Assembly: GCA_046723645.1 (NCBI GenBank) | Contig: JBKOUY010000009.1 | Coordinates: forward strand, 1-62,071 | Origin: Actinomycetota bacterium | GTDB taxonomy: Bacteria > Actinomycetota > Acidimicrobiia > Acidimicrobiales > VFJN01 | Direction: 5' to 3' | Length of the DNA: 62,071 nt | Part shown: positions 10,841 through 15,984 of the stretch, in pieces | How the letters are laid out: each line of letters starts with the position of its first letter | Position numbering within the stretch: position 1 is the stretch's first letter | Program-made: the position numbers and the translations under genes | The notes under the pieces: generated by a model | The model's database searches: none | Seen by the model: only the letters and a program-made list of their open reading frames with translations | What the model was told of the DNA's origin: nothing

Positions 10841-11755
10841 TCAGGCGGACAGCGCCGCGGCTGCTTGGCCGAGCTTGTCGGCGCCGCCCGCGGTGAGCTC
10901 CTCGACGATCGCGACGAAGTTCGGGTGCTCCAGCCCGGAGACGAGGAACGTCCACCGGTACGAGCGCAGCTGGTGGGTCCGGATCTCGTCCCGCTCGGCG
11001 TCGGTGAACGTCCGGCCGGCGGCTGCCTGCAGCGCGTCGATGTCGAGCTCCGCCTGCTGAGCCAGGAGCCCGTCGACGGCGCCGCCCAGCTCGAGCAGCT
11101 CGTCGATGGCCTTCTCGCGCTCGTCGGCCGGGAGCGAGCTCGCGACCTCGTCGATCAGCAGGCTGTCCATGCGGGCGTGCCGGGACTCATCGATCCAGTG
11201 GAAGCGCAGGATGTCCCGGAACAGGTCGTCGAGCTCGGCGCGGTCGCGGACGTGCTCGACGTAGTGGAGCTGAGTGAACCACTCGATCATGCTGGTCAGC
11301 AGCAGCGCGGTGAGCGGAGAGGTGGCGAGGACGGCGCCGGCGACGTCCTCGCGCCCGGGCACCAGGCCGCAGCTTGTGCCGAACCCCGCCTCGAACTGAT
11401 CGCAGGCTCGGCGCAGCATCTCCTGGTGCTTGACCTCTTCCTCGGCGAAGCGCAGGAGGGTCCACAGCCGGGTCTCGTCGCCGTACACGTCGCCGCGGGC
11501 GTGGTCAACGACCATCGGCACGATGTACTCCTCGACGAAAGCGAAGATGTGGCAGTAGCTGTTGCCGCGGATCTGGTTCAGCATCCGCTTCTCGTCGTCG
11601 CTCAGGCAGCCGATGGCGCTGACGCCGGCGATCCGGTCGGGCAGGAACGGCTTGGTGAAGTCGAAGTCGCGGCCCCGGAAGCAGTCGTCCACCGTCCAGG
11701 CGTTCTTCACCGAGCCCTCGAGGCAGATCTTGTAGCTGTAGTCGTTCGTCAACAT
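10841..11755 (-). CDS. ferritin-like diiron protein (AurF/diiron-oxygenase-like)
   Basis: 304 aa from ATG 11755 with GAGAGAGGGAA RBS; ligand pattern VEEYI...EEEVKH...IEWFTQLHY...HWIDESRH (two ExxH motifs). Confidence 0.8.
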   Translation of the reverse strand: MLTNDYSYKICLEGSVKNAWTVDDCFRGRDFDFTKPFLPDRIAGVSAIGCLSDDEKRMLNQIRGNSYCHIFAFVEEYIVPMVVDHARGDVYGDETRLWTLLRFAEEEVKHQEMLRRACDQFEAGFGTSCGLVPGREDVAGAVLATSPLTALLLTSMIEWFTQLHYVEHVRDRAELDDLFRDILRFHWIDESRHARMDSLLIDEVASSLPADEREKAIDELLELGGAVDGLLAQQAELDIDALQAAAGRTFTDAERDEIRTHQLRSYRWTFLVSGLEHPNFVAIVEELTAGGADKLGQAAAALSA

Positions 11756-11774
11756 GTTGGTTCCCTCTCTGTCT

Positions 11775-11796
11775 CGTTCGATCGATCGACCGAATC
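11775..11796. promoter_or_regulatory. putative TetR operator, copy 2 (CGTTCGATCGATCGACCGAATC)
   Basis: 19/22 identical to the perfect palindrome at 15478-15499; 20 nt upstream of the diiron gene start. Confidence 0.75.
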
Positions 11797-11838
11797 CATA
11801 CGGAGTAGTGCTCGTGAATGGGACGTCATCGGGAGGCG

Positions 11839-13959
11839 TCAGACGAGCTCGGCGATGAGCCGGGCGGCGTGGGCGGCGCCGTCGGTTTCGACGTCGCGGT
11901 ACGCGACCGGCGCGCCGACGTGGTCGGCGATGGCCGCCGCGATCAGGTCGGGATCGCTCGTCGCGTAGTCCATGCACCGGCCCGCGTCATAGCGGTCCAG
12001 GCGGTGCCGGACGTGGAAGTTCTGCTCGAAGTGGTGCCGCAGCGGGAAGTAGAGGAAGGGCCGCTTCGCCGCGGCCAGCTCCATGGTCGTCGTCAGCCCG
12101 CCCTGCACGATGGCCAGGTCGCACACCGAGAGGTGCCGATAGAGGCGATCGACGTAGCCGCGCACCTCCAGACCGGGATCCCTGGGAAGGGGAAGGCTGC
12201 CGGGGTCGATGCGAGGCCCGGCGACGACCACCATCCGCAGCTCCGGAGTGCGCCGCTTCGCCAGGGGGTACGCGGCGATGACCTTCTCGAGCAGCGCCCG
12301 TCCGACGCCGCTGCCGCCCACGGCCACGATGCAGACCTGCTCGTCGTCGCGGTAGCCGAGCTCGGCCCGGATCGCCGGGATCTCGTCGGGGCCGGGCGGC
12401 ATGAAGCCGGTGATGTAGCCGCAGAACGAGAAGTGCGTCTCGGTCCAGGCGCGGATGCTCGGGAGGCCGCCGCCGAAGGTGCCCGGAACGATGTCGTCGG
12501 GGTTCCCGACGAAGATGGCGGCGTCCCGGATGCGCGGGTAGCGCGCGACGTGCTCGATCATCTCGGCGTTGTAGTCGGCGGTGAGGAACGCCTCGTGCTC
12601 GCCGCCGTCGGGCATCGGGAGATAGCCGACGAAGTCGGTCATCCAGACGTGGCCCCCCCGCTTGAGCTCGGGGTTCTCGTGCCAGAAGTGGTCGACGTCC
12701 CAGGCTTCGTCGCCGATGACGAGGTCGTACAGCCCCTCCTCCACGACCTCCTGGAACACCATGAAGTTGGCCACAAGGATCTCGTCCATCCGCCGGAGCG
12801 CCTGGAAGCAGTGCAAGTCGTGCTCGCATGACTCGGAGGCCATGTGCGCGGACTCGTTGGCCAGCCACGCACTGGCCGGATGGATCCGCTCGCCCTCCGC
12901 CTCGAGCACGCTCGTGACCGGGTGCTGGGCCAGCCAGTCGACCTCGAGGTCCGGACGGAGGCGCTCGAGCTCCTTCACCACGGCCACGTCCCGCCGAGCG
13001 TGCCCGAGCCCGATCGGCGACGAGAGGTACAACGCCCGCTTGGGCCGGTCGAGGCCCCGTGTCCAGACCCCTCCGCGCATGGGTGCCCCCTCGATCGAGT
13101 CGACGAACTCCTTGACCAGCCGGTTGACCTTGACCGGCTCGCGGCCGTGAGGCAGATGGCCAGCGCCCTCCAGGACTGCAAGCGTGCCGCCGGTCAACTC
13201 GGCCAGCCGCTGGCCCCTCGCCACCGGCTGGCACCGGTCCTCCGTGCCGTGGATGACGAGCGTGGGACACCGGACGCTCCGGCACAGCGCCTCGGCCGCG
13301 TCCCGGCTCTCCGGTGCGTCACGGCCCTCACGCTCGGCGATCATCGTCTCGGGATCGGTCTCGAGCGCCCACGAGACGGCATCCTCGTACTGCTTGGTGG
13401 AGTGGGCCTCGGGGAGCAGCTGGTCGAAGAAGAACCGCGGCCAGGCGGGGTAGTCCTGCCGCCAGAAGCGGCGGTTGCACAGCCCCCATCCGGTGGGATC
13501 GTCGACCTCGTCGGCCCAGCGCTCGGTCGGCTCGGCCCAGTGCTCGTCGCGCGGAGCGAGCGCGATGGCGGGAGCGATCGCCACGACGCCCGACACCCGA
13601 TCGGCGTGATCGGCGGCCAATCGCAGGGCCCAGGGCACCGCATGGCAGTGGGCGATGACGACCGCCCGCCTCAGCCCCACCGCGTCCAGCACGGCGACCT
13701 GGTCGGCGACGACCTCGTCCGGCCCGTAAGCGTCGCGTTCGGTGGGCCGGTCGGAACCGCCGTTCCCGCGTCCGTCGACGGTGACGACGAGATGGTGGCG
13801 GGACAGGAAGGGGACGAGGGCCTTCCACGACCGCGCGTGGGTGATGGGCGTGGACGGGACGAGCAGGAGCCCCGGCTCTCCCCGGCCGAAGACCTCGTAC
13901 GCGACCTTGACCCCCTCGCGCTCGACGACGTCGGCCCGGTCGGGCAGCCGCGCCCTCAT
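11839..13959 (-). CDS. alpha/beta hydrolase - GT-B glycosyltransferase (GT28-like) fusion protein
   Basis: N-half: DGRGNGGSDRP, IHGTEDR, LEGAGHLPH; C-half: SSPIGLGHARRD, VAVGGSGVG, AIVQGGLTTTMELAAAKRPFLYFP, HFEQ; start ATG 13959 overlaps upstream stop (706 aa). Confidence 0.85.
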   Translation of the reverse strand: MRARLPDRADVVEREGVKVAYEVFGRGEPGLLLVPSTPITHARSWKALVPFLSRHHLVVTVDGRGNGGSDRPTERDAYGPDEVVADQVAVLDAVGLRRAVVIAHCHAVPWALRLAADHADRVSGVVAIAPAIALAPRDEHWAEPTERWADEVDDPTGWGLCNRRFWRQDYPAWPRFFFDQLLPEAHSTKQYEDAVSWALETDPETMIAEREGRDAPESRDAAEALCRSVRCPTLVIHGTEDRCQPVARGQRLAELTGGTLAVLEGAGHLPHGREPVKVNRLVKEFVDSIEGAPMRGGVWTRGLDRPKRALYLSSPIGLGHARRDVAVVKELERLRPDLEVDWLAQHPVTSVLEAEGERIHPASAWLANESAHMASESCEHDLHCFQALRRMDEILVANFMVFQEVVEEGLYDLVIGDEAWDVDHFWHENPELKRGGHVWMTDFVGYLPMPDGGEHEAFLTADYNAEMIEHVARYPRIRDAAIFVGNPDDIVPGTFGGGLPSIRAWTETHFSFCGYITGFMPPGPDEIPAIRAELGYRDDEQVCIVAVGGSGVGRALLEKVIAAYPLAKRRTPELRMVVVAGPRIDPGSLPLPRDPGLEVRGYVDRLYRHLSVCDLAIVQGGLTTTMELAAAKRPFLYFPLRHHFEQNFHVRHRLDRYDAGRCMDYATSDPDLIAAAIADHVGAPVAYRDVETDGAAHAARLIAELV

Positions 13960-14825
13960 CGCCTGGCTCTCTCGACGAACTGCCGGATCAGCAGGTTGAC
14001 CCTCACCGGGTCGCGGACGTGCGGGAAGTGCCCGGACCCCTCGAGCGTGACCAAGGTCCCGCCGGTGCGTTCGGCCAGGGACGCACCCTGGGCGTGGATG
14101 CGGATTGCATCGTCGGACCCGTGGATCACCAACACCGGACACCGGACGTTCGCCGCGAGCCGACCGATCGCCCGGGGGGTGCAGTGGTCGAGGCCGTATT
14201 GGGTCGCGATCAACGTCGCCGGATCGATCTCCAGCGCCCAGCCCACCGCGTCCTCGTGCTGTTTGGTGGAGTGCGGCTCGGTGAACATCCGACCCACGAA
14301 GAACTCGACGAAGTCCCGGTAGTCGGCCTTCCAATGATGGGCGTTGTACTTCTCCCAGCCCGCTGGATCCTCGACCACCTCGTCGAACCGCTGGAGCACC
14401 ACGCGCTCGAGCGATGGGAGCGCGAACGGGACCGTGGGAGCGATGAAGATCGCGCCCAGCACGCGCTCCGGATGCTCGGCGCACAGATGCAGGGACCAGA
14501 GGGCGCCGCGCGAGACGCTGACGAGAACCGCGCGCTCGGTCTCCGTGGCGTCCATCACCGCCAACGCATCGGCGGCGAACTCGGCAGCGCTGTACGAGGC
14601 GGGACTTGCCGGCCGGTCCGACCGCCCGCTTCCCCGCCCGTCGAAGGTCAGCACGGTGAAATGCCGGGCCAGGTAGGGGACCTGGAACTTCCAATGGCGC
14701 GAGTGCACGAGCGACCACGTCGGGAGGAGCACGACTGTCGGCGTTCCGGAGCCGTGTCGCGCGCAATGGACGGTGACGCCGTCCCGGGTGACCGATCCTT
14801 CAGCGTCGGCGACGACGGCCCGCAT
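13956..14825 (-). CDS. alpha/beta fold hydrolase
   Basis: LLPTWSLVHSRHWKFQVPYLARHF, FDGRGSGRSDRP, elbow SVSRG, IHGSDD, GSGHFPH; start ATG 14825 (289 aa). Confidence 0.9.
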   Translation of the reverse strand: MRAVVADAEGSVTRDGVTVHCARHGSGTPTVVLLPTWSLVHSRHWKFQVPYLARHFTVLTFDGRGSGRSDRPASPASYSAAEFAADALAVMDATETERAVLVSVSRGALWSLHLCAEHPERVLGAIFIAPTVPFALPSLERVVLQRFDEVVEDPAGWEKYNAHHWKADYRDFVEFFVGRMFTEPHSTKQHEDAVGWALEIDPATLIATQYGLDHCTPRAIGRLAANVRCPVLVIHGSDDAIRIHAQGASLAERTGGTLVTLEGSGHFPHVRDPVRVNLLIRQFVERARR

Positions 14826-15444
14826 TCCTGGCGCCTTCCTTGTTTGCGTCTTCGTCGTCGCCCTCTTCGAGCATCCGCAGGACGTCGCCGATCCTGCGAA
14901 GGGCCGAGCGCGCCGGGATCGCGGCGTCGTCCAGACCGAGCAAGATGACCGTCTCGGCACCCAGGAACGGAAGCCCGGCGAGGGCCGCCACCTCCTCGGG
15001 CGTAAACGGGCCCAGGGTCCCGAAGCGTTCGTGGGCGCGGCGCGCGACACCGGTCAGCAGGTCGAACCAGGCGCGTATGTCCTGGCCGACCGAACCGGCG
15101 ATCTCGGCGTCGGACCAGCCCGCGGCGACCATCTCCTGCAGCACGCGGACGTAGCCGGACTCGAGGTCGTCGTCGAGGAAGTCGCAGGCCTGCTCCCACT
15201 GCTTCCACAGCGGGATGTCCGAGCCGAACATGGCGGCCTGCCGGCCGAGGAGCCGACGGTTCTCCTGCTCGAGCAGCTCCAGGACGAGCTTCTGCTTGGA
15301 CCCGAAGTGGTAGTGGATCTGGCTGAGCGGGACGCCGGCGGTCTCCGCGATCACCCGCGTCGACAACCTGGCGTACCCCACCTGGAGCAGGCTGGTCTTG
15401 GCCGCCTCCAGGATCCGTGTCCTCGTCTCGGGCTCACCGGCCAA
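14800..15444 (-). CDS. TetR/AcrR family transcriptional regulator
   Basis: TRTRILEAA...GYARLSTRVIAETAGVPLSQIHYHFGSKQKL; TTG 15444 with GGAGG RBS. Confidence 0.92.
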   Translation of the reverse strand: MAGEPETRTRILEAAKTSLLQVGYARLSTRVIAETAGVPLSQIHYHFGSKQKLVLELLEQENRRLLGRQAAMFGSDIPLWKQWEQACDFLDDDLESGYVRVLQEMVAAGWSDAEIAGSVGQDIRAWFDLLTGVARRAHERFGTLGPFTPEEVAALAGLPFLGAETVILLGLDDAAIPARSALRRIGDVLRMLEEGDDEDANKEGARNAGRRRRR

Positions 15445-15477
15445 CGAACGCCACCCCTCCGCCAGGACTACTGGCGC

Positions 15478-15499
15478 CGTTCGGTCGATCGACCGAACG
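15478..15499. promoter_or_regulatory. putative TetR operator, copy 1 (perfect 22-bp palindrome CGTTCGGTCGATCGACCGAACG)
   Basis: Perfect inverted repeat just downstream of a minus-strand TTGACA-17 nt-CAAGCT promoter candidate and upstream of the TetR start. Confidence 0.8.
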
Positions 15500-15542
15500 A
15501 AAGGAGCTTGCGCTAGCTCAGGTCGGTTGTCAAGACCCCGCG

Positions 15543-15612: not shown

Positions 15613-15984
15613 ATGGCCGTCACCGCATTCCAAGATCTTCCGCTGGCCGACCGGGACCGGGCGTGGGACGGCGACGCGGCCGAGAAGCGGGTCCGACGGT
15701 GGGCCGGGGCCGACGACACGCCCAACGCCAAGTACCGCGACGCGCACGTCTGGTACGACGCCGACGACAAGGACGAGTTCGGCGCCTACAAGCTCCTAGT
15801 CGCCGACGTCATCGACGGCCGATTGACCGCCGTCCCTCGGGGCGTCATGGCCGCGGGCGCGGTCATGCAGGGTTCGCGAGGAGGCGTCGATCTTCCGCGC
15901 AACGACATCGCACGAGTCAAGTCACACCTCGCCAAGTACTACGCCAAGATGGGCGACACCGCCCCGTGGGAGCGGGGCTCCTAG
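15613..15984 (+). CDS. conserved hypothetical protein (123 aa)
   Basis: GAGGATGGAAG RBS, strong GC3 coding bias; WDGDAA...YKLLVADVIDG...PRGV...QGSRGGVD pattern. Confidence 0.8.
   Translation: MAVTAFQDLPLADRDRAWDGDAAEKRVRRWAGADDTPNAKYRDAHVWYDADDKDEFGAYKLLVADVIDGRLTAVPRGVMAAGAVMQGSRGGVDLPRNDIARVKSHLAKYYAKMGDTAPWERGS

Follow-up and report, generated by a model that had tools for sequence, protein, structure and literature searches.

A putative TetR-controlled, two-operator gene unit linking a hydrolase-glycosyltransferase fusion to an AurF-like diiron protein in Acidimicrobiales

Results

Gene content and operators of the unit

We analyzed a 62,071-nt stretch of contig JBKOUY010000009.1 (assembly GCA_046723645.1; Actinomycetota, Acidimicrobiales), here called the window, and within it a unit of four minus-strand genes. 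These encode a TetR-family repressor, a stand-alone alpha/beta hydrolase (ABH), a fusion of an ABH to a glycosyltransferase (GT), and a ferritin-like diiron protein (Table 1). A preliminary description, made from the sequence alone, had given these gene identities and overlaps, a perfect palindrome before the TetR gene (operator O1), and an imperfect copy before the diiron gene (O2); coordinates and Pfam matches bear out the former, and both operators were found as reported. Comparison with related loci suggests that the unit is a lineage-specific form of a wider regulon with the order O1, TetR, optional ABH, ABH-GT, O2, and accessory gene.

Table 1. Coordinates of the genes, domains, and regulatory elements of the unit
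Feature	Position	Strand	Description
TetR-family repressor	14800-15444	-	214 aa; TTG start behind GGAGGGG; Pfam TetR_N
Stand-alone ABH	13956-14825	-	289 aa; ATG 26 nt inside TetR 3' end; Abhydrolase_1
ABH-GT fusion	11839-13959	-	706 aa; ATG overlaps ABH stop (ATGA)
Fusion N-terminal ABH domain	13075-13959	-	Abhydrolase_1
Fusion C-terminal GT-B domain, GT1-like	11839-13074	-	residues 296-706; Glyco_tran_28_C
AurF/CmlI-fold diiron (ferritin-like) protein, predicted	10841-11755	-	304 aa; 83-nt gap after fusion
Operator O1	15478-15499		perfect 22-bp palindrome CGTTCGGTCGATCGACCGAACG; 33 nt upstream of TetR start codon
Operator O2	11775-11796		19/22 match to O1; ends 19 nt before diiron start codon
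Promoter-like elements, TetR operon	15505-15533	-	TTGACA 15528-15533, 17-nt spacer, CAAGCT -10-like 15505-15510
Candidate internal -10	11805-11810	-	CACTAC, 8 nt upstream of O2

The operator pair is far from chance expectation. With up to 3 mismatches, the 18-nt operator core matches twice in the window, against 0.09 matches expected, and two or more matches were seen in none of 100 shuffles. At 1 mismatch or fewer, O1 and O2 are the only copies in the whole genome (4,089,088 bases in 244 contigs), which contains two further sites with 3 mismatches. Five nucleotides separate O1 from the -10-like hexamer CAAGCT upstream of it. A terminator-like hairpin between the -35 element and O1 (15504-15519) is at chance level in a terminator scan.

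Related loci were collected in two sets: the best 70 genome loci from a collection scan with the diiron protein, and the best 80 loci from a metagenome scan with the GT that gave at least 558 relatives. In the 1.09 Mb of diiron-anchored loci, the 18-nt core matches only in L008, L009, L010, L015, and L034. The first four each have one operator before TetR and one before the diiron gene, and both are conserved at these two places although the flanking intergenic DNA has diverged. The same four loci keep the layout of GTCTTGACA, 17 to 19 nt, a CAnnnT-type hexamer, and then the operator. L034 and the GT-anchored L077 have the operator on the diiron side, on contigs that lack the TetR end. In the 0.53 Mb of GT-anchored loci, matches to the 16-nt core with up to 2 mismatches lie mostly upstream of TetR, OsmC-like, diiron, or ABH-GT genes, and three fall within unrelated genes. 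Because both operators are conserved in related loci, the diiron gene probably belongs to this TetR regulon, and the operator link that the preliminary description drew between TetR and the diiron gene is thus supported by conservation.

The repressor and its relatives

The window TetR matches TetR_N (PF00440) over residues 12 to 58 with 43.2 bits against a cut-off of 24. Its ligand-binding domain matched no curated equivalog in NCBIfam. The TetRs of related loci fall into a type 1, 53 to 100% identical to the window protein (n = 13, window included), and a type 2, 25 to 38% identical (n = 33). All 13 type-1 loci have the operator, located upstream of the TetR gene, and all 13 type-1 proteins have a single Cys within an ACD motif, as in the window; neither the operator (0/33) nor the ACD Cys (0/33) is found with type 2. 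Loci L022, L029, and L038 carry a type-2 TetR and a different operator, TTAGTC-N4-GACTAA, upstream of TetR only. The single invariant Cys of type 1 recalls thiol-based sensors such as NemR and could mean thiol-based sensing.

Predicted folds of the enzymes

The two ExxH motifs noted earlier in the diiron protein (E107-H110 and E190-H193) are present and invariant across 38 aligned family members, as are all seven positions of the putative ligand set E76, E107-x2-H110, E158, and H186-x3-E190-x2-H193. The spacing of the last motif matches that of the AurF ligands. An AlphaFold model of the protein (predicted local distance difference test [pLDDT] of 89) aligned best with CmlI (VIA-align Z scores of 18.5 and 18.0) and AurF (17.3 to 17.8) over 258 to 270 residues at 14 to 16% identity. 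These scores are about 2.3 to 3.5 Z units above those of methane monooxygenase, ribonucleotide reductase R2, and R2lox (15.0 or less). In the model, the protein has a ferritin-like four-helix core, in which the invariant residues would form a 3-His/4-carboxylate dimetal site.

The GT domain matches Glyco_tran_28_C with 27.2 bits (cut-off, 22), and its sequence profile finds a UDP-glycosyltransferase (UGT; 7vlb, 5.6e-6), MurG (9.4e-5), and YjiC in the PDB. These profile matches and a structure model (pLDDT of 85.2) agree on a two-Rossmann GT-B fold with a C-terminal nucleotide-sugar-binding half. Z scores of the model against GT1 enzymes range from 26.4 to 28.1 over 334 to 351 residues at about 15 to 18% identity; the best are UGT109A1 (28.1, 346 residues aligned), 2iya (27.9), YojK (27.5), and CalG1 (27.0). 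G22-x-G24-H25 near the N terminus and G325-G326, T329, E332, and E350-Q351 in the C-terminal half are invariant and are consistent with the catalytic His and donor-binding motifs of GT1 enzymes. By the model, the domain is thus closest to the GT1 small-molecule UGTs, and "GT1-like" is a more apt label than the "GT28-like" first attached to it. The murG model TIGR01133 scores 21.7 bits against a cut-off of 250. MurG (GT28), with a Z score of 25.4, comes close to the GT1 enzymes, which makes any CAZy family placement tentative.

The two hydrolase copies are 46% identical. The stand-alone ABH (Abhydrolase_1, 85.5 bits) has a triad of Ser (SVSRG), Asp (HGSDD), and His (GSGHFPH), while the fused ABH (67.8 bits) retains the Asp and His and has AHCHA at the nucleophile position (Cys105). 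This division recurs. At loci with a separate upstream ABH, the nucleophile of the fused copy is Cys in 12 of 14 cases, mostly as AHCHA, and that of the separate copy is Ser in 11 of 12. Fusions for which no separate ABH was called upstream have Ser in 44 of 51 cases, and some of the 7 with Cys lie at contig edges. Among the fused ABHs, the Asp column is kept in 63 of 65 and the His in 65 of 65. This pattern points to a duplication after which the copies shared out their roles or took on new ones.

A recurring TetR/ABH-GT core with an operator-controlled slot

The recurring core of the GT-anchored loci is a TetR with an approximately 700-aa ABH-GT fusion; a TetR was called in 47 loci, a count that includes the window and six genome loci. 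One Atlas cluster of this architecture counts 2,426 members, mostly from Actinomycetota. In Deinococcus sp. QL22, a TetR gene is followed by the two domains, annotated as separate genes. Neighbors of the core vary, and most of them are redox enzymes. By number of loci, they include OsmC-like proteins (17 loci), Lumazine_bd_2 (10), SBP56 (9), PpoB2 and DUF1326 (8 and 7), FAD_binding_3 monooxygenases (7), Pyr_redox_3 flavin monooxygenases (6), winged helix-turn-helix (wHTH)-methyltransferases (6), and P450s (4). Large SARP/AAA regulators also recur near the core. In type-2 TetR loci (L098, L102, L118, L128, L133, L135, and others), SBP56 and Lumazine_bd_2 genes often lie just upstream of TetR/ABH-GT, and pairs of PpoB2 copper-chaperone and DUF1326 genes recur near the fusion.

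The gene behind the second operator differs among lineages. In the window, the 16-nt core of O2 begins 46 nt past the GT stop codon. A second operator begins 44 to 59 nt past this codon in all four type-1 diiron loci and in 10 of the 12 loci with an OsmC-like gene on the same strand; of the other two, L097 has a degenerate site and L106 has none. The intergenic DNA around the second operator is not conserved. At loci whose OsmC-like gene diverges from TetR, the intergenic region contains two operators in L080 and L130, and one was found in L124. The slot behind O2 thus holds an OsmC-like gene in most sister loci and the diiron gene in the window lineage. The OsmC-like proteins have one Cys, not two, in the four sequences read, and score 50.7 against the NCBIfam OsmC-related (seleno)protein model, below its cut-off of 95.

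The genome of the window also has an OsmC-like gene, on contig C214 (L170, 17-2049). It is 63% identical to that of L092 and lies directly after an FAD_binding_3 monooxygenase gene; no operator beyond chance was found at it. The same FAD_binding_3 and OsmC-like pairing recurs behind O2 in L111 and L112.

Contexts of the diiron gene

The diiron family is common in soil metagenomes and patchy in genomes. A word search returned about 1,900 matches, of which the best 120 are 81 to 92% identical to the window protein. The protein was not found at an E value of ≤1e-10 in 300 other sampled genomes of the same order, which we read as rarity in this sample, not absence. The 70 diiron-anchored loci come from metagenome-assembled genomes of Acidimicrobiales/Acidimicrobiia, Acidobacteriota, Alphaproteobacteria, Methylomirabilota/Rokubacteria, and Chloroflexia, among others.

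TetR, ABH, and ABH-GT lie upstream of the diiron gene, with the GT gene directly before it, in 8 of these 70 loci, and L070 has a broken GT copy. Elsewhere, the gene is found beside a convergent ABH-LuxR fusion of about 357 aa (15 loci), an extracytoplasmic function (ECF) sigma factor with a zf-HC2 anti-sigma factor and methyltransferases (7 loci), a divergent SARP/BTAD regulator with a downstream ABH (7 loci), a divergent LuxR-type large ATPase regulator (4 loci), or a wHTH-TPR regulator with or without an ABH (4 loci); the remaining loci have other contexts, are cut, or were not called. More distant homologues (30 to 40% identical) sit on plasmids of cultured bacteria, in the order AraC, diiron, OsmC in Novosphingobium and OsmC, diiron in Nostoc. 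These contexts suggest that the diiron family is a regulator-associated enzyme with many partners rather than a fixed part of a GT pathway. One specific ABH subfamily as its partner was considered and rejected, as the ABHs downstream of the gene at the SARP/BTAD loci are haloalkane-dehalogenase-like and the others PcaD/LipJ-like.

The 15 loci with an ABH-LuxR fusion are from Acidobacteriota (L041-L067), and the fusion, of about 360 aa, joins an ABH to a LuxR (GerE) DNA-binding domain. A gene matching it in size and position lies immediately upstream of the diiron homologue on plasmids of Burkholderia sp. YI23 and Caballeronia (L160, 3614-4702; L161, 3721-4806), annotated once as LuxR and once as alpha/beta hydrolase. 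Such a fusion may be a regulator with a hydrolase-fold sensor. In six Acidobacteriota loci (L044, L045, L046, L052, L056, and L065), kynurenine-pathway genes lie about 3 to 8 kb upstream of the diiron gene and encode tryptophan 2,3-dioxygenase, 3-hydroxyanthranilate dioxygenase, an Amidohydro_2 protein, a RidA-like protein, and an aldehyde dehydrogenase. They could hint at an aromatic-amine substrate of the diiron protein or could reflect shared synteny of related genomes.

Two possibly broken copies were seen. In L070 (9247-10252), GT residues 18 to 253 run directly into diiron residues 165 to 248, which looks like either a deletion across the GT-diiron junction in a decayed copy or a misassembly. 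On contig C178 of the window genome (L006, 1405-1770, minus strand), 27 N-terminal residues of a second diiron paralogue remain, VLTHDYRYETCLEGPVKNAWTVDDCFQ, and the frame then runs on into unrelated residues, as would result either from a broken copy or from a join made in assembly. The remnant most resembles the diiron copies found beside LuxR-type large regulators.

Diiron-OsmC fusions and gene trees

A profile search with the diiron family gave 1,612 cluster representatives (50% identity) at an E value of ≤0.001, 991 at ≤1e-10, and 299 at ≤1e-30. Eight of the longer proteins among 150 listed matches were scanned for fusions. In two of them, P0154 (522 aa) and P0190 (505 aa), an OsmC domain follows the diiron domain at the C terminus. 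These two share 40% identity over their full length, and P0154 also shares 40% with the window protein over a stretch of 301 residues. The C-terminal part of P0154 aligns with the GT-linked OsmC-like protein, including the N-terminal extension of the latter (E = 1e-10). A third, P0159 (459 aa, from a metagenome), joins the diiron domain (6-288) to a response-regulator receiver domain at its C terminus (343-453). Of the others, three have an AurF match alone, P0146 adds a subthreshold PEGA match, and P0260 has a chaperonin match only. P0125, the sole candidate fusion from the word search, was rejected as a spurious long open reading frame (ORF) with an internal gap.

In a quick IQ-TREE analysis of 86 GT rows (SH-aLRT support only, midpoint root), the window, L015, L008, L009, and L077 form one subclade (SH-aLRT of 92) nested in a 15-row clade (97) and a 27-row clade (99), in which 12 rows are of the OsmC type. 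The diiron-linked L022, L029, and L038, with their different TetR and operator, fall in the other main clade, and the pairing of diiron and GT genes therefore arose at least twice. In a 43-row diiron tree, the window protein groups (94) with the GT-linked L008, L009, and L010 and the ECF-linked L007 and L011, and the GT-linked copies do not form one clade. We read these trees as suggesting that, in the window lineage, an OsmC-like gene behind a preexisting O2 gave way to the diiron gene, where the direction of the swap depends on the root, and that a separate linkage of the diiron gene to ABH-GT took place in another lineage.

Genes around the unit

The flanking genes on both sides look unrelated to the unit. 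Downstream is a convergent Glyoxalase_3 gene, followed by hydantoinase A/B genes; upstream are a divergent 123-aa ORF and a LysR gene. The divergent ORF (15613-15984, plus strand) has a good bias in GC content at third codon positions (GC3) and begins some 110 nt from O1. It matched no Pfam family, and no counterpart was apparent among the neighbor clusters of related loci, in which no dedicated check for it was made.

Discussion

A proposed inducible regulon

We propose, at a probability of about one half, that the unit is a TetR-repressed, inducible two-operator regulon for the detoxification or modification of a reactive or oxidizable small molecule. Its most likely task, as predicted from these sequences, is an inducible oxidation, hydrolysis, and glycosylation of such a molecule in the manner of a detoxification system. 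This proposal starts from the gene content, the conservation of the operators, the exchange of genes at the O2 slot, and the folds described above.

From these we infer repression by this TetR, an inducer, the substrates, and an order of reactions, as follows. O1 would overlap the start region of a promoter that drives tetR, abh, and abh-GT as one translationally coupled transcript, and O2 would control the AurF-like diiron gene, either through a block of an internal promoter or by stopping read-through. The repressor would leave both sites in response to an inducer, which could be a small-molecule ligand or else an oxidant or electrophile that reacts with the single conserved Cys of TetR. The Ser hydrolase and the Cys-variant hydrolase-GT fusion would then cleave an ester or lactone and glycosylate a small-molecule acceptor with a nucleoside diphosphate (NDP)-sugar. 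The diiron protein, with its arylamine N-oxygenase fold, would use O2 as an oxidase or oxygenase and serve as a swappable accessory.

Several points weigh against this proposal. The preliminary description had looked to co-occurrence of the diiron protein and the fusion in other genomes. Seen from the diiron gene, this was found in the eight loci and broken copy described above, but seen from the GT, only one of the 69 metagenome loci with at least 300 nt downstream has a diiron gene, and that one is L077, the closest relative. Most diiron genes lie in other contexts, and coregulation need not mean a shared substrate. The diiron tree mixes copies linked to GT with copies linked to ECF sigma factors in one clade; the gene moves easily between regulons. 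The fused ABH may not be a hydrolase at all, because Cys replaces its nucleophile Ser. For the diiron protein, the Pfam AurF match (PF11583) is 27.3 bits, under the cut-off of 29.6, with most of its close homologues bearing a precomputed PF11583 label, and neither the protein nor its profile found a meaningful match or a sequence-detectable relative in the PDB. A generic sigma-70 scan called no promoters and thus did not call the elements at O1, which makes the promoter assigned to the TetR operon a tentative one, and the candidate internal promoter at O2 comes from a low-information CAnnnT hexamer. Genes and clusters in the related loci come from a rough in-house GC3-based caller, BLASTP clustering, and Pfam naming. 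Finally, TetR binding, induction, transcription, and all enzyme activities are predictions from sequence and models. The initial idea of a unit that oxidizes, hydrolyzes, and glycosylates therefore holds in part: an inducible function of this kind fits the GT1 likeness and the redox neighbors, but the four genes are not an obligate, fixed pathway.

Alternative explanations

The genes may instead be coregulated and biochemically separate. The diiron protein would then be a protection factor against oxidative or peroxide stress under a stress-sensing TetR and, like the OsmC-like protein it replaces, would share no substrate with the hydrolases or the GT. In its favor are the OsmC-like gene in the O2 slot of most sister loci, the diiron-OsmC fusions and adjacencies that exist without any GT, the many unrelated regulators beside the diiron family, and the invariant Cys of the type-1 TetR, which recalls thiol-based sensors. 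It is less easily reconciled with a diiron gene linked to ABH-GT at least twice, under two types of TetR, which points to a functional tie to the GT unit, and the fold and the 3-His/4-carboxylate pattern fit substrate-oxidizing N-oxygenases better than the other ferritin-like structures listed. We consider this explanation unlikely, yet serious.

A broader idea, which we hold to be rather unlikely, is that the AurF-like diiron, one-Cys OsmC-like, and ABH/ABH-GT families belong to one unrecognized, widespread system of soil bacteria for reactive oxidized metabolites. Each component would have a dedicated sensor (the one-Cys TetR, an ABH-LuxR fusion, a SARP, an LAL, or an ECF sigma factor), with the TetR as a thiol sensor for this class of compounds. 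The diiron and OsmC-like proteins would pair as oxidase and reductase, with the GT adding a sugar to the product; candidate substrates are, for example, aryl hydroxylamines, nitroso compounds, or organic hydroperoxides.

In a further alternative, which we consider very unlikely, the unit would not detoxify an external compound but carry out biosynthetic tailoring: it would make or decorate a glycolipid or secondary metabolite of the cell itself through glycosylation, oxidation, and the handling of acyl or ester groups. Homologues of GT1 and AurF/CmlI enzymes are classic tailoring enzymes, and the structural neighbors include CalG1/2, SpnG, GtfD, CmlI, and AurF; a Cys nucleophile in an ABH fold also recalls acyl-transferring enzymes. 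However, no scaffold-building genes accompany the unit: polyketide synthase, nonribosomal peptide synthetase, terpene, and sugar-nucleotide synthesis genes neither lie beside it within the window nor recur in the neighbor clusters of the 80 GT-anchored loci. The accessory genes differ from locus to locus, and inducible units for catabolism, efflux, or detoxification are usually laid out with an autoregulated TetR and operators at the structural genes.

Turnover of a lactone-type signal, with lactonase-like or receptor-like hydrolases that degrade or modify it and TetR as its receptor, is highly doubtful: the best NCBIfam matches of the TetR (the ScbR autoregulator-binding family, residues 7 to 167, 40.9 bits against a cut-off of 150) and of the ABHs (3-oxoadipate enol-lactonase models) and the pairing of the diiron family with ABH-LuxR fusions in Acidobacteriota, Burkholderia, and Caballeronia speak for it, but the former lie far below curated cut-offs and reflect likeness at the superfamily level, the operator is unlike autoregulator-receptor boxes, and no signal synthase gene lies near the unit in the window.

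An inducible oxidation, hydrolysis, and glycosylation regulon remains our preferred explanation. Should it prove wrong, what is left is an ordinary enzyme operon under the control of a TetR. All four proteins come from large, uncharacterized families, and the comparative data make this single locus testable, with a defined operator, a repressor subfamily, a regulated slot for OsmC-like or AurF-like genes, and natural diiron-OsmC fusions. They open a way to learn what an AurF-fold family with no tie to natural-product clusters does, and they point to a possible oxidize-and-glycosylate detoxification route in uncultured soil Actinomycetota.

Comparison with known systems

As the preliminary description had supposed, no pathway of this composition was found in the titles and abstract openings returned by literature searches. 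All parts belong to known superfamilies. The TetR resembles the TetR/QacR paradigm in its N-terminal helix-turn-helix, in a palindrome just downstream of its own -10-like hexamer, and in a second copy at a target gene; it differs in a ligand domain that lacks a curated equivalog match and in its single invariant Cys. The OsmC/Ohr thiol peroxidases have no representative in the window unit, and the OsmC-like proteins that hold the diiron slot in sister loci differ from them in having one Cys instead of two and a subthreshold NCBIfam score. The GT shares its GT-B fold, the profile of its nucleotide-sugar half, and its invariant motifs with GT1 UGTs (Bacillus UGT109A1/YjiC/YojK, the macrolide GT 2iya, and CalG1/2), from which it is set apart by its low identity and its fusion behind an ABH domain. 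The diiron protein has the AurF/CmlI N-oxygenases as its best structural matches and shares with them the ferritin-like helical fold and the carboxylate/His pattern, including an extra His four residues before the second ExxH. In contrast to these enzymes, to which its identity is low and its Pfam score subthreshold, it lies outside a natural-product cluster and belongs to a family that is always found beside a regulator and sometimes adjacent or fused to an OsmC-like domain.

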